Positions 19,404 through 37,854 are shown, counted from the stretch's first letter. The stretch: DNA of 64,000 nt from an uncultured Planctomycetia bacterium (GCA_964484255.1 CAZAEH010000003.1:19937-83936), one strand, 5' to 3'. Notes: generated by a model not told the origin, from the letters alone. Program-made: numbers and translations.

Positions 19404-20206
19404 ACATAATAGTTTGCATCAAACAGGTCCCGGACACCCAGGACATAAGGATAAATCCCGAGACGAACACCCTGATGCGCGAGGGCGTGCAGTCGATAGT
19501 CAACCCCTTCGATATGTACGCTATCGAAGAGGCCCTGAGGATAAAAGAAAGGCTTGGCGCCGCGTCAACGAAAGTGACGGTTTTGAGCATGGGCCCGTCT
19601 CAGGCTGAAGAAGCGTTGCGCGAGGCTGTATCCATGGGCGCCGATGAGATGGTCCTTATGAGCGATCGCGCTTTTGCGGGTTCGGATACCTGGGCCACGA
19701 GTTATACGCTTGCAAAAGGCATACAGAAGCTAGGGAAGTTCGATCTTATCATCTGCGGCAAACAGGCTATAGACGGGGACACCGCGCAGGTTGGGCCCGG
19801 GATCGCGGCTACATTGGATATACCGCAGGTCACATATGTAAAGAAGACCGAGGACATAAAAGAAGGCTTGGCCAAGTTCGAGAGGATGACCGAAGAGGGT
19901 TATGAAGTCATAGAGACCCCCTTGCCTTGCCTGATAACTGTCGTAAAAGAGATAAACATACCGCGTTTACCGTCGCTTAAGGGGAAGATAAAAGCCAAGC
20001 AGTCGAAGGCGGCAGTCCTGGCCGCGAAAGATATAGAGGCTGACCCGGACAGGCTCGGCCTTAAAGGTTCCCCGACAGTCGTGAAAAAGATCTTTACGCC
20101 CCCGAAGAGGACCGGAGGCCAGGTATTGCAGGGAGAGGTCCCTGATATCGTGAATAAATTAGCGGATTCCATAAAAGACGTAGTCATATCGGTGAGCAAA
20201 ACATAA
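19400..20206 (+). CDS. etfB: electron transfer flavoprotein beta subunit
   Basis: [30 protein letters not shown]… Contains [13 protein letters not shown]-coupled to the acyl-CoA dehydrogenase gene. Confidence 0.8.
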
Positions 20207-21476: not shown

Positions 21477-23054
21477 TTGGCAGAAGTCCCGCTTACCAGT
21501 ACAAGAGAGAAGATCCCTTTTACTTCCAGCATTAATTTCAGGTTTATCCTGATATTCATACTGCTTGTGACATTCACCACTTTCCTTAGCGGGATGATCC
21601 TTATCTACCAGGGACAGAGTTCCCTTGAAGATGCCGTCCTCAAGAGGAACCTCACCGCGTGCGAGAACGTACGCAGCAAGATAGATAACTTCCTTCAGCA
21701 GGCCAAGTCTTCGGTCGAGCTCATGACCCTAATGCCCAGCATAAAGGATTTTGACCTCTTCCAAATAGACAAGATGATGTACGAGATCATCTCGGAACAT
21801 GAGATGCTGGATCCCGTGGCCGTACTTAACGAACAGGGCATAGAGATAGCTTCGCGAAACCCGGGTGACCAGAACAAAGACATGTCCTTAAGTGATATCT
21901 TCCTGAAATCCAAGAAGAAGAGCTATATATCGGATATATATTTTTCTTCAGACGGCCAACCTTTTGTGACTATAGCTTCCCCCATATTCGATTATGACAG
22001 TTACGGCAGGAGGATAGGCGTCCTTGTGACTGCGGTCAAGCTGCGCAGCCTTTGGCCTATGCTGGACCAGACCAAGATAGGCGAGAGGGGAATGATAATC
22101 GTGACAGACAAAAAGGGCAACCTTATATACAAAACAGGGGATACGGATACCGGTAACCTGTATAATGACAATACGGTGAAACTTGCCCTTGAGGGTAAGG
22201 CCGGAAGCGCTAATATAGGCGACATGCTGGTATCATACCTTCCGTTGTCAGGGAATATCAAAGGCGCTGTCGTAGTAAAGCAGCCTGCCCAGGAAGCGCT
22301 TTACGGCGTGGCGAAGATGAGGAGCCAATCCCTAATCCTGCTTATCTTGAGCATAATGGTGGCCATCGCAATAGGGCTGGTGCTTTCGAACAGCATGCTC
22401 GTATCGGTCAGGAAGCTGCTTATAGGTACCAAGATAGTCGGCGAAGGCGACCTTAACCACAAGATAGACATAAAGACCGATGACGAGATAGGCGAGCTTG
22501 CCAGGTCGTTCAACATGATGACCATTGAATTGAAGAAACAGAGGGAGAGGGCCATAACGGATGAGTTGACCCACCTTTATACGCATTCCTACTTCCTGGA
22601 GACATTGAAAGCTGAAGTGTACAGGGCGAAGAGATATAGGACCAGGTTGTCGCTTATGATGCTCGATATCGACCATTTCAAGTCATTCAACGATAATTAC
22701 GGCCACCAGGTAGGCGATGAGGTCCTGATCAAGATCTCGGATATGCTCAAGGCCAGTCTTAGGGAGTCTGACGTTGCTTCAAGGTACGGCGGCGAAGAGC
22801 TTGTAGTGCTTGCTACAGAGACGGACAGGGAAGGCATATACATATTGGCCGAGAGGATACGCAAGAAGATAGCCGAGGACGTTATAGTCGAATATGAGGA
22901 CAAAAAATTGAAAGTTACCGTCAGTATCGGGGTGACAACGCTTTCGGAGGAAGATATAAAGAAAGATATATTCCCCCATGATTTCCTGAAGCGGGTGGAC
23001 GTTGCCCTCTATCAAGCTAAGGACAAAGGAAGAAATTGCGTCGTCCAGATCTGA
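21477..23054 (+). CDS. membrane sensor diguanylate cyclase (periplasmic sensor domain-HAMP-GGDEF)
   Basis: TTG start after an AGAGGGGG RBS. Two TM segments flank a periplasmic domain of about 250 aa. HAMP region (IGELARSFNMMTIELKK). GGDEF domain with RYGGEEL in place of GG[DE]EF. Confidence 0.75.
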   Translation: MAEVPLTSTREKIPFTSSINFRFILIFILLVTFTTFLSGMILIYQGQSSLEDAVLKRNLTACENVRSKIDNFLQQAKSSVELMTLMPSIKDFDLFQIDKMMYEIISEHEMLDPVAVLNEQGIEIASRNPGDQNKDMSLSDIFLKSKKKSYISDIYFSSDGQPFVTIASPIFDYDSYGRRIGVLVTAVKLRSLWPMLDQTKIGERGMIIVTDKKGNLIYKTGDTDTGNLYNDNTVKLALEGKAGSANIGDMLVSYLPLSGNIKGAVVVKQPAQEALYGVAKMRSQSLILLILSIMVAIAIGLVLSNSMLVSVRKLLIGTKIVGEGDLNHKIDIKTDDEIGELARSFNMMTIELKKQRERAITDELTHLYTHSYFLETLKAEVYRAKRYRTRLSLMMLDIDHFKSFNDNYGHQVGDEVLIKISDMLKASLRESDVASRYGGEELVVLATETDREGIYILAERIRKKIAEDVIVEYEDKKLKVTVSIGVTTLSEEDIKKDIFPHDFLKRVDVALYQAKDKGRNCVVQI

Positions 23055-24328
23055 CCCGGTCTTTCCTGTCGATCGTTTTCATTACGGTTGCCCTATCCGC
23101 GGATTTTCCAGTTCCCGCCGATGTCATCATACGCGATAAAGTCCTGAAAAAAGCCGAGACTATACAGGGTATCGATTTCCCCAAGGGAACGCTTGTTTAT
23201 TTTACGGAAGCCGGAAGATTGCAGTACGCCTACCTTGGCTCAGACCAGCAGGTATCGGGTATTTTTTTTAAAAAGGGTACCTCGGTATATTTCAACGAAG
23301 CGGGAAAGCTCGATTACGCCTACCTTGGCGCAGACCAGCAGGTCTATGGGATACCATTTGCCAAGGGCACCTCATTGTATTTCAACAGGGCCGGAAAGCT
23401 TTTACATGCCGTCTTTGCTGCCGATGAAGAGGTCCAAGGGATATATTGCGCGAAAGGCACAAAAGCCGGTTTTTATGATTCCGGGAAATTGCAATATGCC
23501 ACATTGGCCAAAGACCAGGATATTCAGGGTATCGTTTGCGCCAAAGGTTTTCCCGCCGGTTTTTATGAATCCGGAAGACTGCAGTATGTTACGATCCCCG
23601 CAGATGTCGATATGGGCGGAGTAAAATTCAGGCAGGGGACTTACTTCGTCTTTTATGAATCCGGCAGTATAAAGAACGCGTATCTGGTTTCGCCTACCGA
23701 GGTGATGGGTATCACCTGCGCCAGCGGCCCAAGTGTTAGTTTTTACGAGAACGGGAAAGTAGATTGGGCGGTTCTCAATGAGATCAGCAAGGTACAAGGT
23801 ATCATGTGCGCCAAAGGTTCCACCATAGGTTTTTACCAGTCGGGGAAATTGCAATATGCCACATTGGCGGATGACCAGAACATAAACGGCGTATATTGTG
23901 CTAAGGGCAGTAAAGCCGGTTTTTATCTTTCGGGGAAATTGCAATTCGGAACACTTGTAACCAAGCAAAAAATAAACGGTATTCCCTGCGCTAAGTGCAC
24001 GGTCGCAGGACTTTACGAATCCGGGAAACTGCAATATGCGACACTAGGCGAAGAAAACGAGATAAGCGGCATACCTTGTGCGGCGAACACAAAAGTTGAT
24101 CTTTATGAATCAGGCAGCCTGCAATACGCTTCCCTGGCCAAAGACCACAAGATAGGAGAGACCTTTTTCATGAGGGACACCATAGTTGGCCTTGGAGAAT
24201 CCGGGAAATTACGCTATGTGATCTTGGGCCGCGACCAAGACGTGCAGGGGCACTTTTACCCGAAAGGTTCAAAGATAAGTTTCGACGAGAATGGTAAGCT
24301 CAGGGAAACCGAAAAACCCGCAGAATAA
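23036..24328 (+). CDS. secreted tandem-repeat protein (about 13 copies of a 30-aa unit)
   Basis: TTG start. Signal-peptide-like N-terminus (LTRSFLSIVFITVALSADFP). The body is a 30-residue period, consensus roughly KG(T/S)xxGFYESGKLQYATLAxDQxIxGIxCA. Near-identical 90-bp DNA repeats are visible, e.g. ggaaattgcaatatgccacattggc occurs at 23476-23500 and 23840-23864. Confidence 0.6.
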   Translation: MRRPDLTRSFLSIVFITVALSADFPVPADVIIRDKVLKKAETIQGIDFPKGTLVYFTEAGRLQYAYLGSDQQVSGIFFKKGTSVYFNEAGKLDYAYLGADQQVYGIPFAKGTSLYFNRAGKLLHAVFAADEEVQGIYCAKGTKAGFYDSGKLQYATLAKDQDIQGIVCAKGFPAGFYESGRLQYVTIPADVDMGGVKFRQGTYFVFYESGSIKNAYLVSPTEVMGITCASGPSVSFYENGKVDWAVLNEISKVQGIMCAKGSTIGFYQSGKLQYATLADDQNINGVYCAKGSKAGFYLSGKLQFGTLVTKQKINGIPCAKCTVAGLYESGKLQYATLGEENEISGIPCAANTKVDLYESGSLQYASLAKDHKIGETFFMRDTIVGLGESGKLRYVILGRDQDVQGHFYPKGSKISFDENGKLRETEKPAE

Positions 24329-24367: not shown

Positions 24368-24396
24368 TTGACGAGCCTTGATACGTGTAATACAAT
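24368..24396 (+). promoter_or_regulatory. sigma70-type promoter TTGACG-17-TACAAT
   Basis: -35 TTGACG at 24368-24373, 17-nt spacer, -10 TACAAT at 24391-24396. Located 33 nt upstream of the ATG at 24429 (RBS GGAAGGAGAGG at 24413-24423). Confidence 0.45.
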
Positions 24397-24649: not shown

Positions 24650-27600
24650 ATGCTGAGCCGAAGCTTAATCAAGATTATAACAGTAATATTTACCGCGTCG
24701 ACGGTATTGGTAGTGTTCGTATCCTGTCCGGGCGGTGCGGAAGAATCTTCTCCTGTCGAAGAATTACAGGCGGGAATAGATTGCAGTAATCTCTCGCTTG
24801 AGTCAGCCCTGAACAAGCTTTATGAAGTTGACAGGGATATCCAGATAGCCAAACTTGCCTCCGATGCCGCCGTGCTTGAAATAAAGGCAAGGAAATTGGA
24901 TACTTTCCTTCCCAAGATCAGCATAGCGGGAAGCGTGATAAAACCATTCGACCTCTTCAGCGATCTTGACCAACAGACAGATCTTTTCTCGGAACAGCAA
25001 TTGGTTATAGAGATGTCTATTACTTCCGACAGCCTTAATTATATCTCCAAAGACAGGAAGAACTATGAGGCGAGCCTGCTTGAGATCAAACAGGCCGTAA
25101 CGGAAAGGACAAGGAAACTTATATCTGTATATTATGCGGTTGCTTCAGCTCAGGAAAATTACCGCATGAGCTGTGATAATGTAGAAACTGTTGAAAAAGT
25201 AATAGAGCTTATAAAGGGGAGCCCCGAATACACCGAAACAGAGAAACTTGAATTAAAGAATTATCTGGGCATAGTCAATGAAAGAAAAATAGGGGCGTTG
25301 AATACCCTTATAAATACAAGACGGGACCTCAGGGGATTATTGGGATTGGAGGATAACGATGACCTGGAGATCGTTGTCCAGGAACTTCCCGGCAATGTGA
25401 ACAAGGATCCGGCCTTCGCCGAAAAAGCGGAGATAAGGCCCACTGACTATACGCTTGATATAGTCAAGAAGAGGAGCGAGGAAGCTTCCGTATCGGCCCA
25501 TATAGGCACCAGTCCCCGCCTGAAGCTTGCCTCAACTACTATACTCGGGCTGGCGGAAGGTAAAGGTACCAGGTTTGAAAGGAAAGTTATAACCGACACC
25601 CAGCTGGAGTTATTCGTTACTGATTTCGGCCATTCGGAAGGCTTGAACCGCACGAAAAGTTTGGAATCACAGATAGCCAGGCTTGAGGTGTTAAAGGCTT
25701 CGGAGGACCTTGAGTGTGATGATCTTATGGGAAACGCGAAAATCTCCGACCTCAGCAAGAAGATAGATAATTACAGGGAGTATATAGCGAAAACAGAAGA
25801 TACACTCAGGATGCTTAAGGAGAAACTCTCGCTCCCGGTCATCGAAGTAATAAGGATTAGCGATAACCTTTACAAGGCCAAGTATGCATTACAGCAGGCG
25901 TTGAGCGATTATACGGTAACCTTGTCGAAGCTAAAAGGTGTCGAGATTAAGCCGGAAAATATGAGCCCGGCTTACCAGGACATGGATCTCGGGGACCTGA
26001 TATCAAGAGGAGAAAGAGCGGATCTTCTTACGGCGAGACAGATAGCCGAGAAGAGGATAAAGGTAGAGAAGGTGCGTATAGGTGCAGAGAGGGCCGGTTA
26101 TCTTCCCAAGCTTTACGGAGCGGCAGTACTTGAGAACGTGAACATAAACGGCACGCCGTCCAAGAATACCAGGGCTTTCCTTGCCTTGGAAGGCCGCATA
26201 CTTAACAACAAGGTCGGGGCAGCGGTAAAAGCCGCCAAGGCCGGGCTCAAGGAAGCCGAATACGAAGGCAGGGCGCTCCAGAACGCTGTTGCAGATGAGA
26301 TAATAAAGAATTATCTTCTTGTCCTGCGTTTCACCAACACACTTAAGAGACTCAACGAGATAAAAGAGCTTAAGAGCGGTCTTATAAACGATATGCTTGA
26401 GGACATGAGAAGCAAGAACACTAAATACACAAATTCCGACATACTTCCCCTCGTCCTACAGCAACTGGAAGTGGACAGGGAGATCTCGAATGTCGAATTT
26501 TCCTTGGCAGTGGTCGAATACAACCTCAAGAGATGGACAGGGATACCGCTTAACGAAACTATAACGGTGAAAGACCTGCCCTTGTTCGGCAGCGAAGAAG
26601 GGTTGTCTGATTTTAAAATGATGCTTAAAGGGAAGGTGGCGCCTTATTACGACGGGATGGCTTCCGTAAAACAGGCGCTTAGTTCTGTTGAAAGAAAGAG
26701 GGCCGGTGAGACCAGGGCCTTAGCCTATGAAGGGGCCATATGGCAGGTCAGGTATGAGACCAAGGGTTCCGATTATGACGGCTGGGAAGACCCTGATAAA
26801 CAGCTTTCATTTAGTGTCTCGATCCCATGGGGAGATCATGCCGAGAAGGTTGCCAGGTCCGAAGCCGCCAGGGACCGTATAAGATCTGAGATAGAATACG
26901 CGAAGAGCATGGATTCGTACGAGAAGGAAAGGTTCGCCGTGAAGACCGCCTACGATGCCTCAAATGACCTGCTCGGGGATCTTCGAAATAAAATGGAAAA
27001 TGCCGGTTCCCAGTTCAGGATAACGGATGAACTTTTCAGGTTCGGGGGAAGGACCAAGCGCCAATGGGCGGATGCCCGCCTTGATTATGTAGTTTCTCAG
27101 CTTACCTATGAAGAGGCGATCTTCGATAATTACTATGCCAGCGCCAGGGAGATACTTTTTGTAGAAAAAGATTCCAGACCGGAGGGCGGGGAAAAGATAC
27201 TTTTGTCGGGCCTCCAGGAGGCGCTGGATCTTGCTTTGCGCAACAGCCGTGAGATCAAAAAATACGAAGATGCCCTTGCGCTCGAGGAAGAGTCCCTTAA
27301 CTATTATAAGATGATAAGGGTGAACGGTTCGGTAAGCAAAGGTTATTATGTAATGGACAACAAGGGTTCTCAGAAACGAAAGACAGTCCAGACGACTGGA
27401 GGGGTTATTTCGGCGGAAGTGGACCTTGTGAACAATCTTATGGTCAGGAAACAGGAATTAAGGGTAGAGTTGGCCAGGAAAGACCTCGAACAGGCCAAGT
27501 TCGATCTTAACATAAGGGTGGTCGATTCATACTGCAATTACCTGGCCTCGCTTGCGGAGTACTCCCAGGTAGGCGGTGAGTACGAAAAACAGAAAGCTGT

Positions 27601-28498
27601 GCTCGCAGGGATCGAGGAGCTTTACACGGCGGGGGCGGTAGCCCACGTAGATTACCTCAAGCAAAAGGAATTTGTAGAAAGCCTCCTGCAAAAAACAATC
27701 GATGTCCGGAAATATTGCGAGGGTTACAGGAGCAATCTCGGTATAGTGGTTGGAGGGCTTGACCCCAGGTTCTCCGTAATGAATATCGAAGTATATGACG
27801 AATCATCCAAGAAGGTTATGTTGGCCGATAACTGTGATATAAAAGAAAGGCTTACCGCCGAACTCGGGTCGGCGAAGAAGGAGCTGGAAGTGCCGTTGCG
27901 CGCGGACCTGCTGAAACGGACCGAATGCAATATAGGAATGGCCAGGCTCGATACCGAGGCCATATCAAAGCAGATCAAGTCCCTGACATTCAATCTCGAG
28001 TATACTTATCTTACCGACTTTATGGGGGCGGTAACAAGGAATGAGGCCATATTCTCACGCTATAATTCCCTCTCGGAGTTCATATCCCTTAATTCCATGG
28101 ATAAGATATTCGATCCTGCCACGGCCACCAAGGCGAGGGTAGCTGCGTTAAAGGAAAAGATAACGGCCCTCAAGTCGAAATCGTACATGTCTGAGGTGCT
28201 CCAGAATGCCCTCAGGATCTTCACCGATTATAAGATGGCCGTTTTGGACTATGAGAATTTTGAAAAGAACGTATCCGTGCTCGAGGAGCGGATGAGCGAG
28301 CTCATGCGCGCTGAAGAGGCGACCGGGGACATGCCTGTCGTAAGGATCAGGGAGATAAAAGAGACCCTGCTGAACAATAAAATAAAGGATATACAGGCTT
28401 ATTACCATATGGTCAGTCTTATGAACGAGCTTGACCGGTACCTTATGAGGTATACAGCCAAGGGCATCGATTCATATATAACTTACGTGTCAAAATGA
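24650..28498 (+). CDS. giant outer-membrane-factor (TolC/NodT)-like lipoprotein, 1282 aa
   Basis: Lipoprotein signal with lipobox (…LVVFVSC). Repeated OEP-like segments (LSLESALNKLYEVDRDIQIAKLASDAAVLEIKARKLDTFLPKISIAGSV; DLLTARQIAEKRIKVEKVRIGAERAGYLPKLYGAAVL; LSGLQEALDLALRNSREIKKYEDALALEEESLNYYKM…) lie within extensive predicted coiled coil. It is about three times the length of TolC. AAAGGGG RBS; stop overlaps the next start (ATGA). Confidence 0.45.
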   Translation: MLSRSLIKIITVIFTASTVLVVFVSCPGGAEESSPVEELQAGIDCSNLSLESALNKLYEVDRDIQIAKLASDAAVLEIKARKLDTFLPKISIAGSVIKPFDLFSDLDQQTDLFSEQQLVIEMSITSDSLNYISKDRKNYEASLLEIKQAVTERTRKLISVYYAVASAQENYRMSCDNVETVEKVIELIKGSPEYTETEKLELKNYLGIVNERKIGALNTLINTRRDLRGLLGLEDNDDLEIVVQELPGNVNKDPAFAEKAEIRPTDYTLDIVKKRSEEASVSAHIGTSPRLKLASTTILGLAEGKGTRFERKVITDTQLELFVTDFGHSEGLNRTKSLESQIARLEVLKASEDLECDDLMGNAKISDLSKKIDNYREYIAKTEDTLRMLKEKLSLPVIEVIRISDNLYKAKYALQQALSDYTVTLSKLKGVEIKPENMSPAYQDMDLGDLISRGERADLLTARQIAEKRIKVEKVRIGAERAGYLPKLYGAAVLENVNINGTPSKNTRAFLALEGRILNNKVGAAVKAAKAGLKEAEYEGRALQNAVADEIIKNYLLVLRFTNTLKRLNEIKELKSGLINDMLEDMRSKNTKYTNSDILPLVLQQLEVDREISNVEFSLAVVEYNLKRWTGIPLNETITVKDLPLFGSEEGLSDFKMMLKGKVAPYYDGMASVKQALSSVERKRAGETRALAYEGAIWQVRYETKGSDYDGWEDPDKQLSFSVSIPWGDHAEKVARSEAARDRIRSEIEYAKSMDSYEKERFAVKTAYDASNDLLGDLRNKMENAGSQFRITDELFRFGGRTKRQWADARLDYVVSQLTYEEAIFDNYYASAREILFVEKDSRPEGGEKILLSGLQEALDLALRNSREIKKYEDALALEEESLNYYKMIRVNGSVSKGYYVMDNKGSQKRKTVQTTGGVISAEVDLVNNLMVRKQELRVELARKDLEQAKFDLNIRVVDSYCNYLASLAEYSQVGGEYEKQKAVLAGIEELYTAGAVAHVDYLKQKEFVESLLQKTIDVRKYCEGYRSNLGIVVGGLDPRFSVMNIEVYDESSKKVMLADNCDIKERLTAELGSAKKELEVPLRADLLKRTECNIGMARLDTEAISKQIKSLTFNLEYTYLTDFMGAVTRNEAIFSRYNSLSEFISLNSMDKIFDPATATKARVAALKEKITALKSKSYMSEVLQNALRIFTDYKMAVLDYENFEKNVSVLEERMSELMRAEEATGDMPVVRIREIKETLLNNKIKDIQAYYHMVSLMNELDRYLMRYTAKGIDSYITYVSK

Positions 28499-31400
28499 GA
28501 CCGGAGATGGCCAAGAACGGCAAAAAGGTAATTATAGTATTGATAGCGGTGCTGGCGGTGCTGCTTGCCATGCGTTCATGCCACAGGCCTGCCTTCAAGG
28601 CGTCAGTCCGTGAACCTTCTCCGGCCGAGCCTGAGAAGGCGATACCGGTTACCGCAGCGAATCCTTTGGATAATTCAAAGCAAAAGGATGGCCCGATAAA
28701 TGCCGGCGAGTTGGCAACTTTCATACTCGAATGGTCTGATCCTGGTACGGGCCTTGTGCCTACCATGATAGCCAAGTCAGGCGAGAAGAACCCCTTTGCA
28801 GAGATGTCTTATGTGTATCCTCAGGCTCTTGCCCACCAGAATATGGTTATGGCCGGTCAGCACGAATTTTCTTCCAAGGTTGCCGGGTTGTTGATGGAAA
28901 GAGGGGAGACTAGGGACATTCCCAACGGTCTTAACGTAAGGACCGGGTTGAGTGAAGATCCCCTCATAACGGCAGGGCCCAACGCCTGGTGGGGAATAAG
29001 TTTCATAAGGGAATTTCAATTGAGCGGTGATGAAAAATGGCTTGCCGCGGCTGAACGCCGTGCCGAGTTCCTTATAAATCTCCAGGCGGACAACGGGGGC
29101 ATAAGGAAATACCCGTTCCAGGGCAATACGGAATATTATGCTAAGTCGACAGAGGAGAACCTGGACTGTTATGTCCTGTTCGGGATGCTTTACGATATCA
29201 CCGGTAATGGTGTTTACAAGAATGCCATGGACAATATCCTTAAATGGATGGTATCGAGCGGCGTATACAACATAAAAGGAGGGTATTTTACAGCCGGTAC
29301 TTCTAAAGACGAGATAAATGATGTTTATGCTACTGACGCAAACGCACTTGCCATTATAATCCTGGGGCCCGAGGTCCTGGATTCGGAGTTTGGAGTGAAA
29401 TTCGGGGGGATCCGCACAAGCCGCAGGTTGCTTGAGAACCTGGAAAGGGCAAGGGTAAAAGTAGATTATTTGCATCCTAGCGGGGTAAAGGTCAAGAACG
29501 TAGAGGGATTCGATTTTACCGATAAATTCGGCAGGCCGGGCAGAAAACCTGTGCTGTCTCCGGAGTTCTCTTCCCAGGTTGCACTGGCTTATCTTGTTAT
29601 GGCCAAGCACGCAAGGGATAAGGGGGATAATGAAACCGCGGTGAAGTTTGTCGATACGGCAAAGTTATACCTTGATAACCTAGGGCGTATGGCCGCAAGG
29701 ATGGGTGTTTCCGCGTCGCTTCCTTATGCTTCCGAAAAAGGGATCAGGCGCTACCCATTCGATAACTGGCTTACTCCGCAGGCGGATGCCGATATCTCGG
29801 CCACGTGGACGTCATTCCCTCTCTCCGGGTTTAACCCGTTTGACCTCAACGGATTCGCGTTGCGCGACTCACTCAAGGATATTGCTAAGTGGATGAACGA
29901 ACAGGGCAAGGTGACAAAACCCTCCAAAGCGATAGTTATCCCGGAGCAGGAGAGGGTGATATCTGAAGCGGAACTTATCGCGCAGCGGGAGGCCAGCAGG
30001 GATGCCGCCCTCAAGAAACCCATAGTTTATTATAAGGTCCTTTACGACCAGGTCCTCAAGGATGCTACGATAGCCAGGAAGAGGGCCATAGCAGTCCTGA
30101 TGACTAGCTATAATTGCTGGTTTGACGGGGTGTTGGATACGCAAAAACGGGATTATGATGTTATAGGTGTTGACGGCGGTTTCAAGATAATTTACAAGAA
30201 GTTCTCAGACCTCCCGGAGCCCCTGAGCAAAGCTATCAGGTCGGAATATGCCTATTTCGACGATTCGACCGGAATCAAATGGAGGATAGCACCGAAGTAC
30301 AACCTGCGCCTGGATGGTAATTATAAGCCTTATTATGCTTTTGAGATAGACGGCGACTACAACATAGTAAGGCAGTTCTCTTCCGAGAACGACTTGCCTG
30401 AGGCCAACAGGGAAGACCTTAAGAACCAGGCCCAGCAGTTCCAGTCCGCAAAAGACCTGCCAGAGGGCCATTTGATAGCCAGGTATTTTACAGCCCTTGA
30501 AGTTGACGCGGATATGAATATACTCCAATATTATGATTCCGTAGAAGACCTGCCGGGCCTTGTTTCTAAAGTACCTATTACCGAACAGGAATACAAGAAA
30601 TATGTAAACGCGCAGGACTGGCAGAGGGCAGACCTGATATCTGCCGGTGTGGTCCCTGACGACAAGGGCATGCTTGCTACCCAGGAACGCGGCATGTACT
30701 ACGCCAGGGTCCTTGGGCTTGATGAGACAAGGCGATTACGGGTGGGCGGCGTTTCGGTCAAGAGCGGACAGGAAATAGTCATGGGTACCAAGTTCAACCT
30801 CACGAATTGGAGGACGAGCGAGACCTCGAAGTTGAACGCCGTGAAATATGAGCGGGGCCTTATCGAGGGCATGGTCATAAAGCCAAGGAAAGAATTCACC
30901 GGGAGCAGACCTACCCCTACGCAGCCGTTATGGATATACCTCGGCAATGACGTGATAGCTTCGGAGACAAAAGAATTCAAGGAAAGGCTGCTTGAACTGC
31001 TCAAAAGGGTCAGGGAGGAGAAGGATGCGCAGACCCGCCTCGAACTGATCGAACAGTATGACCGCCTTTCCAACGAATTGGCCTGGTATGACGACGACGG
31101 GTTTATCCACGTAATATATTATGGTGCAAAAGCAGCCGAAAAAAGGTTAGGCGAATTCGAGGTGGCAAAAGAAAGGGCTGAATCCACCCTAAGGAGTTAT
31201 GAGTCCATACTGGGCAAGGACGAATTCGGACGAGACCTGCGTGATGCTTCGGGCAGGGTCTGGCTCAAGGTGGTCAATGAAGCTACCGGTAGGGTCCTTT
31301 ATGTGGAGGTCTATGATATTGCCGGTAACCTTGAGACCATATATTCCGAGAATATACAGATAGACCCGCTTACAAAAGTCGTTACTTCTGATATCAGGAC

Positions 31401-34400
31401 GGATATCGAATACGACAAAGACACGCTTCAGGTGGTGGGCGGCCATACTTATCGTACGGATGAGAACGGAGAGTGGCTTTCCGATTTATCCGAGAGCATC
31501 TTCAAAGGTTACACCCCGGATAAGAAATATTTCGTCTCGGAAGTACATGTATTTGCCAGAGATGAAGACGGGAGGATAATATTCGAGGACGGCAAGGCAC
31601 GGTACACAAAGAAAATAGAATATTATACGCCGGAAGGTGATATATCCGCGCAGATAGTCAAAAACATAATAACCATAGTAAAATACGGGCCCGACCAAGA
31701 GGTCACCAAGGAAGTCTTTCTTGAATCGCCCGGCAAGACTTTATCGGATGAGGTCCCTAACCTTGAGAATCTGACCCAAGGTCTCGCGTGGGTACGCCGT
31801 TACAAGACTACCGGGAAGATCATGAATTTCAAGGAAGCATTGACCAAGTCGCTTACGTCCTTGCCCGAAGGTGAAAGGGAGAGGCAGGCTATACTTATAC
31901 TTAACAGGCTTGGCGCAGAGAAGGTAGGCAGGGTCAGCGACAGCCTTGTACTGGAGGAGAACGAGGTAACAAACAACCTCATCGGTGACCCCAACGCTCC
32001 GGGAGAGACGCCCTATTTCGTTTTCTATGAACCTGGGGACAGTCTTGGCAGGCAGAGGTTGATAGTCCGCGGCGGCACTATAGAGGTCCCGGTAGATTGG
32101 ATAGCCGAGACCGAAATACCGGCAAAGACCCTGACGTTCAACCTTGCGGGAGAACTTGTGTCGATAAGCGATGTCGACAACTCTGTCCGCGCAGATTCGA
32201 TACTCTCTCCCAAATATATAAAGAGAATGGAGCCTTTGGGCATATATGCCGATACCCTGTTGCCGCAGATGAAGAAGAGGATATTCAGGATGGTGACCGG
32301 GGAAGACGGGCTTCCGCATTTCACCAATACCGTAGCCATAACAACGGTCAGTTATATGATACCGGATGACGTGCTTGGGAGGGAATTGGTGAACGTCAAG
32401 TTCGTAATGCTCGGCGATGAGACGACATTACATAAAGGAAGCAAGCTTAAGCTCAAGAAGAACATGTTCGGCAGGGACACCCTGCTGGAATCCTGGAAGG
32501 ACGACAGAGGGGAAGACCGCACCCGGGCCATAGCCAAGAAAGAAGATACAGTCATCTATGAGTGGTACAAGGAGGGCCTGGAGGTAGACGAGTTAAGGGA
32601 ATTGCTGAAGTCCGAGTACGGGAAGCTGATCAAGCGAAAGGCGCTTGATGAGGCAATGAATAATATAGAAAAAGCCCCGTTCGGGACACTGCCCGGTTAC
32701 CATATAATAGAGCCAGGCGGACGCGTCGGAGAGATCAAATATTTCTCCGGAACGCTCGAGTATCCGCGCAGCGTATTCAGCCATCCGATGATCAAAATCC
32801 CTTATGAACCTGAGGTGAAACCGTTCAAACTTCCTGACGGACCTCCTATAAGGGGCGTCAAATACGGCGTCTTGAATTCCGACTACGCTTTTTACGATGT
32901 CCATTCCCTGAGCGGGCAGCTGATCGTGCTCGAGCGCCGCTTCATAATATTAAGGCTTATGAACATACTCCCGATACAGGGAGGGAGGCAGACGGAATAT
33001 TATGATCCGCTTGTCCCGTATTCATACCTAAGGCCCATAAAGATAGAAAGATATTTCAAACCCGGTACCCAGCCGGAAGGTACGCAACCGGGTACTCAGA
33101 TAGTAGCGGTTTTCCTCGGAGATGCCAGCGTTTACCATCGCAACGGATGGCAGACGCAGACATTCCTCGAACGCAGGCCGTTCGATATCGAACACTGGAT
33201 AAGGTCTGACTACGAGTTTGATGACAACGGTGTGTATAAGTATAAGAAGGAGCATATTGAAAGCAGCTCAGTATACCTCATGAAGACCATAAGATGGCAG
33301 AAACCCCTTCTCTCTGCCGTGTTATTTGCGGGTGCGCTCTTCATGTCCGGATATATATCCAGAAGGAGACTGAAAGCAGGCAGGACCCGCAGGATAAAAG
33401 TTGCCGAGGATGAAGCAAGGGTACAGGCGCCGCCGAAAGGCGCCATAGCGCCGTTTAACAAGGCCTTGCTGGAAAGATCGAACGTTCCTGAAGAGGTCAA
33501 GAAAGCCTGCATAGATGTCTACGAGGGGAATAAACCTCCGTCCGTGCTTTTTGCCGTGGTCATGGAAAAGTTCCGTCCTTTACTGGAAGAACGTTTCCGT
33601 GGTTTTGGCGCAGATCCTTCAAGGCATACCGCCGGTATAAATGTCATAATAAAGAGGATAGCCGACAGGATAGGGCGCGAGGAGATAATCCTCGGTAACC
33701 TGTTTGCGGTTGAGGCGAGGGAGTTTGAGAAATGGTCGGCCAAGAACGGAAGCGGGATCAGGCTGTCAGGCCTTGGGAATAAGCCGGATGAACTCGCGCT
33801 TGTGGCGCTGTTCCGCCTGATATTTGACGAATCCGTGGAATTCAGGGCGGCGGTGCCAGGTTTCAGGAATTACCTGCTTGATAAATCGCTTGGCATACTG
33901 CGTTCCGGAAAAGGGCCCGATGTATTGAAAGAGATCCGAAGCGATGTGCAGGTGTTCATAGAAGCTTTGAGGCCCGGATATGATAAGAAACTTGGCCTCA
34001 TAAAGGAATATATATTCACTTATGACGACATGAACGACCTTTTCGAAGGCAAGAGGCCGGGATTCATAACTTCTTTCGCTAAACTGGCGGGAGCTTCCGC
34101 GGAACAGAAACTTTTGTTCCTGGCGACAAAAGGCGGCAAGGAGCCCTCATCGGACCCGAAGTCTTATAAGAGCTATGCTTGGATGAAGACATTCCCGGAC
34201 AAGGCCGGTATACCGCAATTCGTCGATAACTTGCGCAGGTTCTGGGAGTTCCTAGTACCGATATTTTCCGTTGTTACCCTCGGCGGAGCGGCTATAGCCT
34301 TGAAGCTCTTGCCGTTTGCCGGGAGGATTGAGCAGCTGTCCGTCCACCTTGTCGGGATTCTTTCTCCGATTGCGCGTTTGTCCCCGAACGTGTTGGCCGT

Positions 34401-37400
34401 GTTCATAGAGATAACCCTCTTGATCCTGGCCGGAGTAATGCTGACGGTATTATTAATGAAACGGAGCCTTGGCAACTACAGGCCGGCTCACCTTGCAAGC
34501 GCGGAAAGCAGCGAGATAAGACGCTCTACCAGGCTGTTCTGGGTGATGTTCTTTTCCGCATCGTACCTGTGGGGCCTGTTCAGCATATTCGTGATAATTT
34601 GGACGGTCAGGATAATAATCAAACTTACGTTCGTGAACGCGGGCTGGGGCTTGTTCATCAACTCAAGCGCGCTGCTGCTTACGTTTACTTTCATACTTTC
34701 CAGTTTCTTCTCCCTGTTCTACATAATAATAGCCCTTATAGGTTTTTACCGGGGAAAGAGGGAAGGGGTCGGCCAGGTCATATCATGGGGCCAACTGAGA
34801 AGGAAATTCGGGTTATCGATGCAGCGTTTCTCGGATGTGATGATGCCCTCAGGGGGGCAGGCTTCCGGCCGTGCTGATGAAACGTGGAAGTCCTATTGGA
34901 ACGCCATGATAAAGGAACTCCATGATTACTATATAATAAGCGGAAGAGAGAAAGAGTCGCTTGTCTATTCATCCGGTAATCCCGCTCCGAAAATTGACAG
35001 GCCGCCGCGCGCCGAAGAGGCCTCGGAAAGGATAAGGATCTATATTAACAGTTGGCTCATGGAACTGCCCAAGGCGGAATCCTGGACGGATCTGCCTTCA
35101 CTGACGGCCATGATAACCGCTTTTAACGAACCTGTCAGTTTCACGTTCGATGAGCTCAACGGTTGCGACAGGGGCGCCGAAGTCACGAGGCTGAACCACC
35201 TGATAGGTTTTTACAGGCCCCAATGGGAAGAGTTTGTCAACAGGCTTGGCAGCTCCGATCTGGGGCAATTTGTGACACGGGAGCAACTAAAGCTGTTATT
35301 CGGCCTTAAGAGGCTCCCGGAAGGGCTGCCTGAACAGCTTAGGGAAAAGATACGCAAGTGGGCTAATCTTACCGTCCAGTGTGTTGAGAAGACGGTCGTG
35401 GAAGTATACAAGATACGGGACGCTTTTGCTATGTACGCCCGTATCTGTTACCCCGGGTTTTCCGACGGAGAGATAGAACGCATGGTTTCCGAGAAGGTCC
35501 AGATATTGCTCAACTATGAGGGGTATCATAGCCCCGCGACCAAGGATTCGGACAGGATAGCCTTGAGAAGATTAATGAAAGAGATGCCGAAGCTCAACGT
35601 TTATTGGTCCGCCAGCGATGCAGATTACACGTCCGGGGAAGACGAAACGGCCGTTGCCTATTTCAAGGGCGGCGACTGCGGCCTGCACAGGTATGATGAG
35701 GCTTCCGGCAGGATAGAACTTATAGAGACCGCGCCTTTTGTAGCGCCCGTTAAAAAAGGTAAGCCGAGCGGCCTAAACCAGGCCTTGCCTTTCATAAAAG
35801 GCGAGACCGTACTTTTCTTCGATGCCAACTGTTCTGTAAGGGTAGAGGATGCCGTAAAGATACCGGTGGCATTATCGGAGTTCAGGAACGATCCCGCTCT
35901 CGGAGAGGTCCTGTTCGCGGAGTATATATTCAACAAGAATTACTCATGGATATCTCAGGCGATAGGTTTCAACGAGGAGACGTTCGTATCCGTTACGCAA
36001 CGCACCCTGAATATATTCCAGGCCTGCGGTTTTTACGGCCATAGTGCGATCATAAGGACCGATATGATAACAGCTGCGGGAGGTTTTCCGCAGGACTACA
36101 TATCAGAGGATATACTGTTGGCTACATCTCTTTGGAAGAAAGGTTTCAGGACCGCTCACAAGGAGTACTTGCTCTTCGGTAAAGGCAGGGAGACCTCATA
36201 TTTTACCAGCCTTGTCCCGCTTACAAAATGGGCCATGGGATCTTCCGATGCCGCCATAGGCAGGGTAATCCCCGGTATATTGGATTCCGAGAAACTGCAC
36301 GTAGCCCAGAAGTTCATGCTTATGTTCGGGTTCTCGTTCTTCTACCAGACTCCGCTAATGTTTATAATCAATTTTCTTTACCTGTGGTTGATGATATGCT
36401 GGGGTATAAACGGTTTCATGGCCGTGCCGTATCCTATAGTATTCGGTATATTGGGGCTGCTTTTCAACCAATCTATAACCGCAACGGGTATCGCATACCT
36501 GCTTGAACATTTTGGATTCAGGAAATCTTTCTCGGCATATTTGAGGCTGGTTGCAAAGAACCATTTCTTCTACGCATCGGTCATACCGGCGTATGCCTTC
36601 GGGTTCCTCGCCGGACTTAAAGGGAAGGCTATATTCATAATAAGCCCGAAAGGGTGGAACCTCGGCCATTTACCGCTTAAGATCATCTGGGGGGAGAAGA
36701 GGGACATACTCAAGGCTTCCATGTTCAGCACGATAATAGGCCTGCCTTTGGCCTATGTGGCGGTGGCGACGAAGTCAATGCCGTTGTGGCTTAGCCCGTT
36801 CATACCGTTCCTGCCTTTTGCCATAGTTGCCTTGATGTATACCGCCGGGGTCAAATGGAACAAGATAGGAATACCGTACCTTAAGAACTGGCGCGACGAG
36901 GTAGTCCCTGACGGGGATATAGGGAAGATGTCGGTGATCAAACTGCAGATGATATATGCCGTGGTCCTTCTCGTCTTCACGGGAGTGGGTTTCGTCATGT
37001 GGGGCCTGATATTCTCATCACTGGCGGTCAAGGCGTTGTTCATATTCTCGGCTCTGTACATAAGTACGACGTTGTCTTTCATAATAATGCCGCTTTTTGC
37101 CCATTCGCAGCCTATAGCACTCTTCAAAGAGTTGACGATCTCGAGGTTCTGGAACTTTGTGATAATGCCGTTGCTGTTTGTTTGTGTTGTCCTGGGCATC
37201 AGTTCTATAGCCTCGGGACCGGCTACTGCGTCTCCTGAATCGGTGGTCTATACACTGCTAGGTATATCTTCCCTGATAGGTTGGGCGTTGCTGAAATGGA
37301 AACTCAGCGGTTATACTCGATTGAATAAATGGCTGAAGAATAACCTGCAAGGCTACCCGGCTGCTTCTTCGGTCCAGAAGTCCGATCTTATGGACGACAT

Positions 37401-37854
37401 GTATTTTTCGCACCAGGAACTCATACAGAGCGACAGGCAGGCCGAGATAAGGTATAACAGGGTACTGGGCAAGGTAAAAGCCGTGTTCATATTTACTATC
37501 CTGTTGACACTCCTGCTCTATTTTGCCTCAGAGTTCAACGCGAAATGCTATTCTCACTGGTTATGGGTTTTTGTGGTGTTAGAGGCAGCGTATATGCTAA
37601 TCCTGAACGTAGAGCATACCTCCGATGACAGGGTCTACCTGGGCAAGTTTTACAGCAGCGTGATCATCAATGATTTTAACAGGCTTAATGAGAACGTCAG
37701 GGCAATGGAAGATATCTGGAAGAAACTGGACCGCGCCTACAAAGCCAAGCTTGTGAGGATCTATGAGGATGAGGTGAGAGCCAAGAAAGCGGTCACGATC
37801 TATATGTCCAGGTGTATAAAGGCGTTCTCGACAGACTTCCAGAAGATTACCTAG
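28495..37854 (+). CDS. 3119-aa multidomain membrane protein: N-terminal anchor + periplasmic GH8-like region + polytopic processive GT2 (cellulose-synthase-like) glycosyltransferase
   Basis: Single 9.36-kb ORF, ATGA-coupled to the upstream gene. N-terminal TM at aa 12-27. GH8-signature-like YATDANALAIIIL at about aa 280. TM at about aa 1610. Two TM clusters flank a cytoplasmic domain. That domain has K-x-x-GLNQAL, an F-F-D-A-N-C D-x-D equivalent, an S-E-D…KGFR TED equivalent, and an L-T-K-W-A-M-G QxxRW equivalent, in the spacing seen in BcsA/chitin/hyaluronan synthases. Confidence 0.6.
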   Translation: MRPEMAKNGKKVIIVLIAVLAVLLAMRSCHRPAFKASVREPSPAEPEKAIPVTAANPLDNSKQKDGPINAGELATFILEWSDPGTGLVPTMIAKSGEKNPFAEMSYVYPQALAHQNMVMAGQHEFSSKVAGLLMERGETRDIPNGLNVRTGLSEDPLITAGPNAWWGISFIREFQLSGDEKWLAAAERRAEFLINLQADNGGIRKYPFQGNTEYYAKSTEENLDCYVLFGMLYDITGNGVYKNAMDNILKWMVSSGVYNIKGGYFTAGTSKDEINDVYATDANALAIIILGPEVLDSEFGVKFGGIRTSRRLLENLERARVKVDYLHPSGVKVKNVEGFDFTDKFGRPGRKPVLSPEFSSQVALAYLVMAKHARDKGDNETAVKFVDTAKLYLDNLGRMAARMGVSASLPYASEKGIRRYPFDNWLTPQADADISATWTSFPLSGFNPFDLNGFALRDSLKDIAKWMNEQGKVTKPSKAIVIPEQERVISEAELIAQREASRDAALKKPIVYYKVLYDQVLKDATIARKRAIAVLMTSYNCWFDGVLDTQKRDYDVIGVDGGFKIIYKKFSDLPEPLSKAIRSEYAYFDDSTGIKWRIAPKYNLRLDGNYKPYYAFEIDGDYNIVRQFSSENDLPEANREDLKNQAQQFQSAKDLPEGHLIARYFTALEVDADMNILQYYDSVEDLPGLVSKVPITEQEYKKYVNAQDWQRADLISAGVVPDDKGMLATQERGMYYARVLGLDETRRLRVGGVSVKSGQEIVMGTKFNLTNWRTSETSKLNAVKYERGLIEGMVIKPRKEFTGSRPTPTQPLWIYLGNDVIASETKEFKERLLELLKRVREEKDAQTRLELIEQYDRLSNELAWYDDDGFIHVIYYGAKAAEKRLGEFEVAKERAESTLRSYESILGKDEFGRDLRDASGRVWLKVVNEATGRVLYVEVYDIAGNLETIYSENIQIDPLTKVVTSDIRTDIEYDKDTLQVVGGHTYRTDENGEWLSDLSESIFKGYTPDKKYFVSEVHVFARDEDGRIIFEDGKARYTKKIEYYTPEGDISAQIVKNIITIVKYGPDQEVTKEVFLESPGKTLSDEVPNLENLTQGLAWVRRYKTTGKIMNFKEALTKSLTSLPEGERERQAILILNRLGAEKVGRVSDSLVLEENEVTNNLIGDPNAPGETPYFVFYEPGDSLGRQRLIVRGGTIEVPVDWIAETEIPAKTLTFNLAGELVSISDVDNSVRADSILSPKYIKRMEPLGIYADTLLPQMKKRIFRMVTGEDGLPHFTNTVAITTVSYMIPDDVLGRELVNVKFVMLGDETTLHKGSKLKLKKNMFGRDTLLESWKDDRGEDRTRAIAKKEDTVIYEWYKEGLEVDELRELLKSEYGKLIKRKALDEAMNNIEKAPFGTLPGYHIIEPGGRVGEIKYFSGTLEYPRSVFSHPMIKIPYEPEVKPFKLPDGPPIRGVKYGVLNSDYAFYDVHSLSGQLIVLERRFIILRLMNILPIQGGRQTEYYDPLVPYSYLRPIKIERYFKPGTQPEGTQPGTQIVAVFLGDASVYHRNGWQTQTFLERRPFDIEHWIRSDYEFDDNGVYKYKKEHIESSSVYLMKTIRWQKPLLSAVLFAGALFMSGYISRRRLKAGRTRRIKVAEDEARVQAPPKGAIAPFNKALLERSNVPEEVKKACIDVYEGNKPPSVLFAVVMEKFRPLLEERFRGFGADPSRHTAGINVIIKRIADRIGREEIILGNLFAVEAREFEKWSAKNGSGIRLSGLGNKPDELALVALFRLIFDESVEFRAAVPGFRNYLLDKSLGILRSGKGPDVLKEIRSDVQVFIEALRPGYDKKLGLIKEYIFTYDDMNDLFEGKRPGFITSFAKLAGASAEQKLLFLATKGGKEPSSDPKSYKSYAWMKTFPDKAGIPQFVDNLRRFWEFLVPIFSVVTLGGAAIALKLLPFAGRIEQLSVHLVGILSPIARLSPNVLAVFIEITLLILAGVMLTVLLMKRSLGNYRPAHLASAESSEIRRSTRLFWVMFFSASYLWGLFSIFVIIWTVRIIIKLTFVNAGWGLFINSSALLLTFTFILSSFFSLFYIIIALIGFYRGKREGVGQVISWGQLRRKFGLSMQRFSDVMMPSGGQASGRADETWKSYWNAMIKELHDYYIISGREKESLVYSSGNPAPKIDRPPRAEEASERIRIYINSWLMELPKAESWTDLPSLTAMITAFNEPVSFTFDELNGCDRGAEVTRLNHLIGFYRPQWEEFVNRLGSSDLGQFVTREQLKLLFGLKRLPEGLPEQLREKIRKWANLTVQCVEKTVVEVYKIRDAFAMYARICYPGFSDGEIERMVSEKVQILLNYEGYHSPATKDSDRIALRRLMKEMPKLNVYWSASDADYTSGEDETAVAYFKGGDCGLHRYDEASGRIELIETAPFVAPVKKGKPSGLNQALPFIKGETVLFFDANCSVRVEDAVKIPVALSEFRNDPALGEVLFAEYIFNKNYSWISQAIGFNEETFVSVTQRTLNIFQACGFYGHSAIIRTDMITAAGGFPQDYISEDILLATSLWKKGFRTAHKEYLLFGKGRETSYFTSLVPLTKWAMGSSDAAIGRVIPGILDSEKLHVAQKFMLMFGFSFFYQTPLMFIINFLYLWLMICWGINGFMAVPYPIVFGILGLLFNQSITATGIAYLLEHFGFRKSFSAYLRLVAKNHFFYASVIPAYAFGFLAGLKGKAIFIISPKGWNLGHLPLKIIWGEKRDILKASMFSTIIGLPLAYVAVATKSMPLWLSPFIPFLPFAIVALMYTAGVKWNKIGIPYLKNWRDEVVPDGDIGKMSVIKLQMIYAVVLLVFTGVGFVMWGLIFSSLAVKALFIFSALYISTTLSFIIMPLFAHSQPIALFKELTISRFWNFVIMPLLFVCVVLGISSIASGPATASPESVVYTLLGISSLIGWALLKWKLSGYTRLNKWLKNNLQGYPAASSVQKSDLMDDMYFSHQELIQSDRQAEIRYNRVLGKVKAVFIFTILLTLLLYFASEFNAKCYSHWLWVFVVLEAAYMLILNVEHTSDDRVYLGKFYSSVIINDFNRLNENVRAMEDIWKKLDRAYKAKLVRIYEDEVRAKKAVTIYMSRCIKAFSTDFQKIT

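Follow-up and report, generated by a model that had tools for sequence, protein, structure and literature searches.

A stable array of diverged 30-residue MORN-type repeats encoded in a cyclase, TolC-like protein and glucan synthase gene module of Omnitrophota

Eukaryotic MORN proteins (PF02493; e.g., TbMORN1, junctophilin and the N-terminal domain of SET7/9) are cytoplasmic and consist of repeated beta-hairpins. The repeat comprises 23 residues, and in the solved structures each repeat is a hairpin of two 6-residue strands, such that nine repeats span ~80 Å (PMC7725318). In canonical MORN2 repeats (Pfam MORN_2, PF07661) the unit is 22-23 residues long and forms one hairpin, and most MORN2 proteins of Fusobacterium (87 % of the genes) carry signal peptides; their function is unknown, and a role in adhesion or invasion has been proposed (PMC4222103). 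Here, we discuss a repeat protein, referred to as REP, which is encoded in a 64,000-nucleotide stretch of DNA (GCA_964484255.1, CAZAEH010000003.1:19937-83936, deposited as an uncultured Planctomycetia bacterium). This whole stretch is called the window, and positions are counted from its first letter. REP carries a longer, 30-residue version of the MORN_2 repeat, and its gene belongs to a module that also encodes a diguanylate cyclase, a TolC-like protein of the OEP family and a protein with a eukaryote-type glucan synthase (FKS) domain. REP is formed by a stable array of diverged MORN-type units, and on balance we consider it moderately probable that it is a periplasmic, non-enzymatic scaffold or adaptor of a polysaccharide secretion module that would be under c-di-GMP control.

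The 30-residue repeat is real at the level of the protein and far above chance. When the REP sequence is compared with itself (autocorrelation), the identity is 0.425 at a lag of 30 residues and 0.33-0.37 at lags of 60, 90 and 120 residues, and it is at most 0.12 at all other lags from 5 to 130. Cutting the sequence from residue 48 yields 12 complete units followed by a partial unit of 23 residues (residues 48-430), with the unit consensus xAKGTxxxFYESGKLQYATLxxDQxIxGIx, which is similar to the one given in the earlier, sequence-only reading (KGxxxGFYESGKLQYATLxxDQxIxGIxCA). That sequence-only reading of the window had described the gene as encoding a secreted protein with about 13 tandem 30-residue repeats, which agrees with this count and, as regards secretion, with a hydrophobic N-terminus that would direct export.

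At the level of DNA the 90-bp units are strongly diverged. Across the 66 pairs of full units the mean identity is 0.51, with a maximum of 0.71 (units 4 and 8) and a minimum of 0.38, and only 40 % of the identical amino acids in different units are encoded by identical codons. With Tandem Repeats Finder no more than two copies are detected, at 76 %, and a repeat search with the best unit as reference yields seven copies at 61-74 % identity, all at spacings that are multiples of 90. The same reading had assumed near-identical units and had set a limit of 60 % DNA identity for this claim; the mean falls below the limit and the claim is refuted. The only exact repeat of at least 20 nt in the gene is a pair of 26-mers at 23483 (unit 4) and 23843 (23843-23868, unit 8), i.e., 360 bp or four units apart, and the identical 25-mers reported earlier at spacings of 364 and 72 bp do not exist. 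In the other units the peptide GKLQ[YF][AG]TL is encoded by differing codons. A block duplication of units 4-7 into units 8-11 was considered as the source of the 26-mer pair and rejected, with units 5/9, 6/10 and 7/11 being only 0.46-0.50 identical. Nor does each unit contain a conserved Cys, as had been suggested. The column in question holds Cys in 7 of the 13 units and Phe or Tyr in the rest, and over 371 units of the wider family the most frequent residues at this position are F (22 %), C (18 %) and L (13 %); it is a hydrophobic position rather than a conserved cysteine.

At least six public contigs encode a protein identical to REP. Four contigs, originating from one NCBI metagenome-assembled genome (MAG) and three independent sequencing runs, were compared. 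In these consensus short-read assemblies, in which rare within-population variants in unit number would not appear, the REP gene is 100 % identical without gaps, and the flanks differ by up to 22 single-nucleotide polymorphisms (SNPs). A genome scan identified REP orthologues in Omnitrophota MAGs at 95 %, 61-63 % and 58 % identity, and searches anchored on the neighboring genes added orthologues at ~97 % and ~50 %. In the comparison with the 95 % orthologue, each unit is nearest to its positional counterpart (12/12), the DNA identity being 0.94 on the diagonal and 0.51 off the diagonal. With a 61 % orthologue the corresponding values are 0.63 and 0.50, and the most idiosyncratic units, 6 and 7, are kept in place. 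The positional orthology and the independent divergence of the units imply that the paralogous units are older than the species splits, and the proposed concerted evolution and copy-number switching are refuted.

The ten orthologues are 410-430 residues long and contain 12-13 units. In nine of them an unbroken chain of 10-13 turn glycines is found at an exact 30-residue spacing; in the two orthologues where the chain comprises ten glycines the next turn Gly is merely substituted, and the L031 alignment shows no gap. An alignment of seven orthologues, with identities as low as 49 %, contains no gaps across units 1-11, and its only indel, 10-12 residues in units 12/13, does not correspond to a whole unit. 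Simple-sequence repeats or microsatellites were not found in the REP gene, which contains only a T8 run, at 23262, encoding Phe-Phe. The array is evolutionarily stable, with a fixed number of units, and is not phase- or size-variable.

In-frame tandem coding repeats in an exported protein are also found in the streptococcal alpha C/Rib proteins and in mycoplasma Vlp, where the repeats are near-identical at the DNA level and the copy number differs from strain to strain. The tandem, in-frame arrangement of the REP units, the exact 26-mer common to units 4 and 8 and the T8 tract could be taken to indicate a contingency locus of this type, i.e., 90-bp repeats that undergo concerted evolution and copy-number change by slipped-strand pairing or recombination, as had been suggested, which would lead to phase or size variation of a surface protein. 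Yet the two hallmarks of such loci, near-identical units and differences in copy number, are both absent from REP: its units share on average about half of their nucleotides, the gene is free of indels in the four assemblies and of simple-sequence repeats, units occupy orthologous positions, and their number is conserved across species. An assignment of REP to this class is highly improbable. The idea of a hypervariable contingency gene falls and its importance falls with it. A T8A5 tract (23258-23281) at the boundary of units 1 and 2 is a 17-nt imperfect palindrome (GGTATTTTTTTTAAAAAGGGTACC) that encodes Phe-Phe-Lys-Lys, and it is unchanged in all four identical assemblies.

The Pfam model MORN_2 matches REP with 32.4 bits (gathering cut-off 29.6, E = 6.2e-8). 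The match spans only model positions 5-17 of 22, which correspond to the FYESGKL hairpin; no NCBIfam model matches REP. In a HMMER search of 1.84 billion representative sequences, relatives clustered at 50 % identity were found in 1074 clusters at E <= 1e-3 and 396 clusters at E <= 1e-10. MORN_2 is matched by 44 of the top 64 relatives, with a best E of 6e-18, and no other domain recurs among them. Autocorrelation is highest at a lag of 30 in 128 of 168 relatives and at 22-24 in none, and the family consensus is [F/C/L]-x-K-G-T-x-V-x-F-Y-E-[S/N]-G-K-L-x-x-A-x-L-A-x-D-Q-x-I-x-G-I-x. Sequence searches of the PDB with REP and with a 60-column family profile returned chance-level matches only.

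With MORN_2 proteins, such as those of Fusobacterium and B. subtilis YwqK, REP shares the F/Y-Y-x-[SN]-G-K-L hairpin motif, the tandem arrangement and an all-beta composition. In contrast to the 22-23-residue, single-hairpin unit of these proteins, the REP unit has a period of 30 residues and four short strands. REP is thus built from a variant of the MORN_2 repeat with 30 residues and four strands per unit, where the FYESGKL hairpin is followed by an extra DQxIxGI mini-hairpin. A loose likeness to MORN/YwqK had been noticed in the sequence-only reading, and the Pfam match, the relatives and the structural matches discussed below bear it out. The accompanying statement that no family could be named does not hold, as REP passes the Pfam threshold of a named repeat family.

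Elsewhere, the 30-residue-repeat family expands by tandem gene duplication. Two adjacent paralogues are found in Spirochaetota and another lineage (L019:5652-9219, L020:5929-9454 and L027:4846-7014), with sizes of 446-486 and 719-722 residues, and of 381 and 337 residues, beside housekeeping genes. The closest non-orthologous relatives of REP (P0001, P0002, P0028, P0029 and P0037; 40-46 % identity, from Auribacterota and others) have a conserved, possibly propeller-like C-terminal domain of ~250 residues (...RISPNG..LIY...) after the repeats, which REP lacks.

An AlphaFold2 model of the whole REP, calculated with a 28-sequence alignment, is all-beta with four short strands per unit, as assigned by DSSP (predicted local distance difference test, pLDDT, 88.4; predicted template modeling score, pTM, 0.80), and low confidence is confined to residues 1-30. 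For a five-unit fragment the pLDDT is 96.5, again with four strands per unit. Fold searches of the PDB revealed similarities to Rhs/YD and teneurin proteins, engineered OspA, CROPs, the sheet domain of SdgB/TarM and the MORN domain of SET7/9. The full model gave only local matches to Rhs, teneurin, OspA and CROP proteins at low template modeling (TM) scores, and the TM scores of the fragment were 0.24-0.36. Against predicted viral structures (BFVD) the five-unit model has 70 matches at E <= 1e-3, with TM scores of up to 0.49/0.59, and nearly all of the top matches bear the annotation MORN repeat, MORN variant or YwqK-family antitoxin; the MORN-type fold is here recognized by comparison with predicted, not solved, structures. 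The matches are antiparallel hairpin-repeat sheets (MORN, OspA, Rhs), and no solenoid family recurs among them; the rod may form one twisted sheet or come nearer to the beta-solenoid that had been raised as a question in the sequence-only reading.

Like the eukaryotic MORN proteins, REP is predicted to form repeated beta-hairpins, which may be arranged in an elongated, twisted sheet. It differs from these proteins in that the GxG/YEGEW signature is absent, in that the PDB TM scores are as low as given above, and in its predicted extracytoplasmic location. The Rhs/YD-repeat shells, the clostridial CROP/cell-wall-binding repeats and the single-layer sheets of OspA, i.e., the top PDB matches obtained with Foldseek, share the local geometry of a beta-hairpin repeat with REP, but the TM scores are only 0.1-0.36, no YD or CROP motif is seen and the period is different. 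Scaled from the ~80 Å covered by 18 strands in MORN structures (PMC7725318), a single sheet of 52 strands could by analogy reach ~200 Å or more.

The structural matches to YwqK-family antitoxins, as well as one distant relative that is labelled "antitoxin component YwqK" by its source, would be accommodated if REP were an immunity protein that neutralizes a polymorphic toxin. Such a protein is cytoplasmic and is encoded beside the gene of its cognate LXG-type toxin. REP, however, carries a predicted N-terminal export signal, its neighbors are the cyclase, a helix-turn-helix (HTH) protein, OEP and the synthase, with no toxin-like gene adjoining, PADLOC returns no match for REP, and the period is 30 rather than 22-23 residues. 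A function of this kind appears exceedingly improbable.

In one lineage of Omnitrophota, REP is invariably part of a module of four genes. The earlier placement of the gene between a c-di-GMP synthase and a glycan-synthase module is correct: the cyclase gene is found upstream, and the genes for OEP and the glucan synthase protein downstream (Table 1). In clade A (L011-L015, L018 and L033-L038) the order cyclase-REP-HTH-OEP-synthase is conserved, where HTH stands for a gene encoding a small DNA-binding protein. In clade B (L031, L032, L039 and L040) the core of cyclase, REP, OEP and synthase is kept, including the 19-nt overlap of the cyclase and REP genes, and the HTH gene and the upstream ETF (electron-transfer flavoprotein) genes are absent. 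Apart from the HTH gene, REP is located directly upstream of OEP in every locus that reaches that far (the window, L011-L015, L018, L031-L036 and L038-L040), and across loci the TolC-like, putative lipoprotein is ~1300 residues and the FKS-like glucan synthase ~3100 residues long. REP consequently co-occurs with both a predicted inner-membrane synthase and a predicted outer-membrane channel. The clade-B identities are ~50 % for REP, ~37-39 % for OEP, ~55-57 % for the N-terminus of the synthase and ~65-72 % for the cyclase. Between loci, the identities are lower for REP (49-63 %) and OEP (37-63 %) than for the cyclase (65-87 %); such faster divergence is to be expected of envelope proteins.

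One locus, L030, encodes a related cyclase (P0180, ~72 % identity) without OEP or synthase, and here REP is missing, which indicates that REP tracks the OEP and synthase genes. At the same overlapping start, TTG-CGT-CGT-TCA, this locus carries an unrelated gene (L030:4049-5713) for a 554-residue multi-transmembrane and TPR protein (LRRS...). Different genes have been grafted onto one overlapping start, and its presence in both L030 and the REP loci implies that the conserved start is dictated by the overlapping reading frame of the cyclase.

The N-terminus of REP (MRRPDLTRSFLSIVFITVALSA then DF...) displays an Arg-rich start, a hydrophobic core with a Kyte-Doolittle maximum of 2.8 around residues 8-14, and an ALSA motif with a possible cut at ...ALSA|D. 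The RR pair and the hydrophobic segment are kept in all orthologues in spite of the divergence in sequence. These features suggest that REP is exported and that the signal may be cleaved. In the clade-B orthologues no obvious AxA site is seen, and the segment may instead be an anchor that is not cleaved. The REP sequence showed no lipobox, outer-membrane anchor or sorting signal, nor a signal of the autotransporter or type I secretion (T1SS) kind.

The latter observation bears on the possibility that REP is displayed outside the cell as an adhesin that binds prey or host cells. Such a role would be in line with the signal peptides and the suggested adhesive function of the Fusobacterium MORN2 proteins (PMC4222103), with the faster evolution of REP compared to its cytoplasmic neighbors, and with the host-dependent lifestyle that is reported for Omnitrophota (PMC10066038). 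The adhesive role of the Fusobacterium proteins is, however, itself only a proposal, and their genes are prone to expansion, whereas the number and order of the REP units are conserved in a dedicated genomic context. Together with the lack of a surface-display signal and the strict synteny with a module that would span the envelope, these points make an adhesin unlikely.

In other polysaccharide secretion systems, a scaffold or adaptor role is filled by BcsB, TPR scaffolds or membrane-fusion proteins. Within the run of cyclase, REP, (HTH), OEP and synthase genes, no gene of the BcsB, TPR or HlyD type was identified. The likeness of REP to BcsB, to the TPR parts of BcsC/AlgK/PgaA and to the membrane-fusion adaptors of TolC is one of functional analogy only. 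Like these scaffolds, REP is a predicted non-enzymatic, periplasmic protein, and its gene is found among those for a c-di-GMP source, a glycan synthase and an outer-membrane channel. It has no kinship with them in sequence or fold, being composed of all-beta hairpins rather than TPR, carbohydrate-binding-domain or HlyD-like structures. As a scaffold, REP would be produced together with the cyclase and exported to the periplasm, where it would either be free or stay anchored via its N-terminal helix. There, the array would extend as a stiff beta-rod and serve the polysaccharide secretion machinery as a binding scaffold or adaptor. Such a rod could connect or organize the synthase of the inner membrane and the channel of the outer membrane, or it could hold the growing glucan. 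In a more elaborate version, REP would span the periplasm as the adaptor of a synthase-dependent polysaccharide secretion system of Omnitrophota that is of a kind not described before. Here, a giant GT48/FKS-like synthase in the inner membrane would be coupled to a 1300-residue TolC-like lipoprotein in the outer membrane via the MORN-like beta-rod, instead of a protein of the BcsB, TPR or HlyD type, and a dedicated, translationally coupled Cache-sensor cyclase would switch the system. This version is doubtful and is offered as a tentative proposal.

The main rival of the adaptor is a co-sensor. Here, periplasmic REP would bind a ligand in the envelope or outside the cell, which could be the glucan made by the synthase or the surface of a host, and modulate the dCache domain of the cyclase, such that the link to the synthase would be indirect, via c-di-GMP. 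NspS-MbaA and YfiR-YfiN offer analogues of such an arrangement. The 19-nt start/stop overlap of the two genes, seen in all orthologous loci, suggests co-transcription and translational coupling of cyclase and REP, and the region's best promoter-like site is found between REP and the downstream genes. In addition, the sensor domain of the cyclase resides between two transmembrane segments and would thus share the periplasmic compartment with REP, and the overlapping TPR-containing protein of L030 suggests that this cyclase may generally bring a partner. That same locus also argues against a co-sensor, since the only locus that has the cyclase without OEP and synthase has no REP, and the start codon and first residues are conserved through the overlapping cyclase coding sequence and not through REP. 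We regard the co-sensor as a genuine possibility of rather low probability.

Several points weigh against a scaffold or adaptor. The export of REP is predicted from a hydropathy profile, and binding to a partner or a polysaccharide would be a hypothetical property. The tight coupling to the cyclase, with a promoter-like site that separates the downstream genes, fits the co-sensor equally well. Pfam detected neither a PilZ domain nor another c-di-GMP receptor in the synthase, so the link between c-di-GMP and the synthase, and with it the presumed control of the synthase, is deduced from gene adjacency. The contrast provided by L030 comes from a single locus, where the cyclase may be paralogous. 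Finally, relatives with up to 41 % identity are found in unrelated contexts (HEAT/PLD, sugar ABC transporter, secretin, MCP and housekeeping genes), and in eight further contexts across the wider family no conserved partner recurs, other than occasional tandem paralogues. The distant relatives indicate that the 30-residue repeat is a generic scaffold, and membership of the family is not specific to glucan.

More than 1000 sequence clusters from many phyla are built on the 30-residue, four-strand version of MORN_2, for which the searched copies of Pfam and NCBIfam contain no separate model and no structure has been solved. The strict partnership of REP with a sensor cyclase, a TolC-like protein and an FKS-like synthase is rare for such repeat proteins, and the locus therefore gives bacterial MORN-type repeats a concrete, testable context. 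The module, in which an uncultivated bacterial phylum combines a eukaryote-type glucan synthase domain with a dedicated source of c-di-GMP, is more interesting than REP alone, and REP is the one part of the module that is wholly unexplained. In the library that was searched, no paper joins Omnitrophota with glucan synthase, and a recent survey of giant proteins in Omnitrophota does not mention MORN, GGDEF or TolC.

Table 1. Features of the REP locus, in positions of the window
Feature	Position	Strand	Basis
Diguanylate cyclase, dCache_1-HAMP-GGDEF, with predicted periplasmic sensor domain	21477..23054	+	Pfam
Gene for repeat protein REP, 430 aa	23036..24328	+	TTG start, stop included; open reading frame (ORF) list, same gene model on four public contigs; orthologues start at the same TTG-CGT-CGT
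19-nt overlap of REP start and cyclase 3' end	23036..23054	+	ORF coordinates; same in L031, L032 and L012-type loci
Putative N-terminal export signal or membrane anchor, aa 1-22 MRRPDLTRSFLSIVFITVALSA	23036..23101	+	Hydropathy; low-confidence AlphaFold helix, aa 7-21
Beta-repeat array, 12 full units of 30 residues (90 bp) and 1 partial unit	23177..24328	+	Lag-30 autocorrelation, unit table; four short strands per unit in models (pLDDT 88.4, 96.5)
26-nt exact repeat, first copy (unit 4)	23483..23508	+	k-mer scan; second copy 23843-23868 (unit 8)
Best sigma-70-like promoter match of the region, TTGACG-17-TACAAT	24368..24396	+	Consensus scan, 10/12; pattern match only
Gene for HTH_17 (excisionase/MerR-like) DNA-binding protein, 64 aa	24429..24623	+	Pfam HTH_17, E = 2.9e-11
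TolC-like OEP protein, 1282 aa, N-terminus ...VSC-PGGAEE	24650..28498	+	Pfam OEP, 3-5 matched stretches
3119-aa protein, N-terminal GH76-like region and C-terminal FKS-type Glucan_synthase/GT2-like domain	28495..37854	+	Pfam PF02364 93 bits, PF13632, PF03663

In the cyclase, two hydrophobic segments, around residues 13-45 and 281-311, flank the dCache domain. The active-site motif is GGEEL (22788-22802, residues 438-442) instead of GGDEF/GGEEF, and an intact RESD I-site is found five residues upstream. The stop codon of REP is followed by a gap of 100 bp that holds the promoter-like site, and then by the HTH_17 gene, which is present in the clade-A loci and absent from those of clade B. Its product displays a weak PADLOC similarity to "mad1" (E = 8e-6).

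The OEP protein is probably an outer-membrane lipoprotein, as judged from its N-terminus, and the N-terminal Cys is conserved in the consensus of the orthologues. The protein is about three times the usual length, and no internal repeats or triplication were detected with BLAST. It is the fastest-diverging product of the module, as reflected in the low clade-B identity (37-39 %). In the synthase protein, a membrane anchor at the N-terminus and a GH76-like (alpha/alpha)6 region are combined with a C-terminal, eukaryote-type 1,3-beta-glucan synthase (FKS)/GT2 domain; its N-terminal 1200 residues are 55-93 % conserved in all related Omnitrophota loci. The next gene after that of the synthase is convergent.

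Upstream of the module, the segment 13035-21449 (+) encodes FabH-, FabD-, FabG-, ACP- and FabF-like proteins, an acyl-CoA dehydrogenase and the beta and alpha subunits of ETF, where the alpha subunit carries a fused ferredoxin domain. In clade A the cyclase gene comes immediately after that of ETF-alpha, and clade B has other upstream genes. The window and the MAG contig L001 are 99.9 % identical. Of the 22 differences between them, 18 are found within 400 bp at the start of the ETF-beta gene (19371-19768; gene at 19400-20206), and hardly any differences are seen over the remainder of the 21 kb. These clustered differences are mostly spaced by multiples of 3, a pattern suggestive of synonymous changes imported on a recombination tract.

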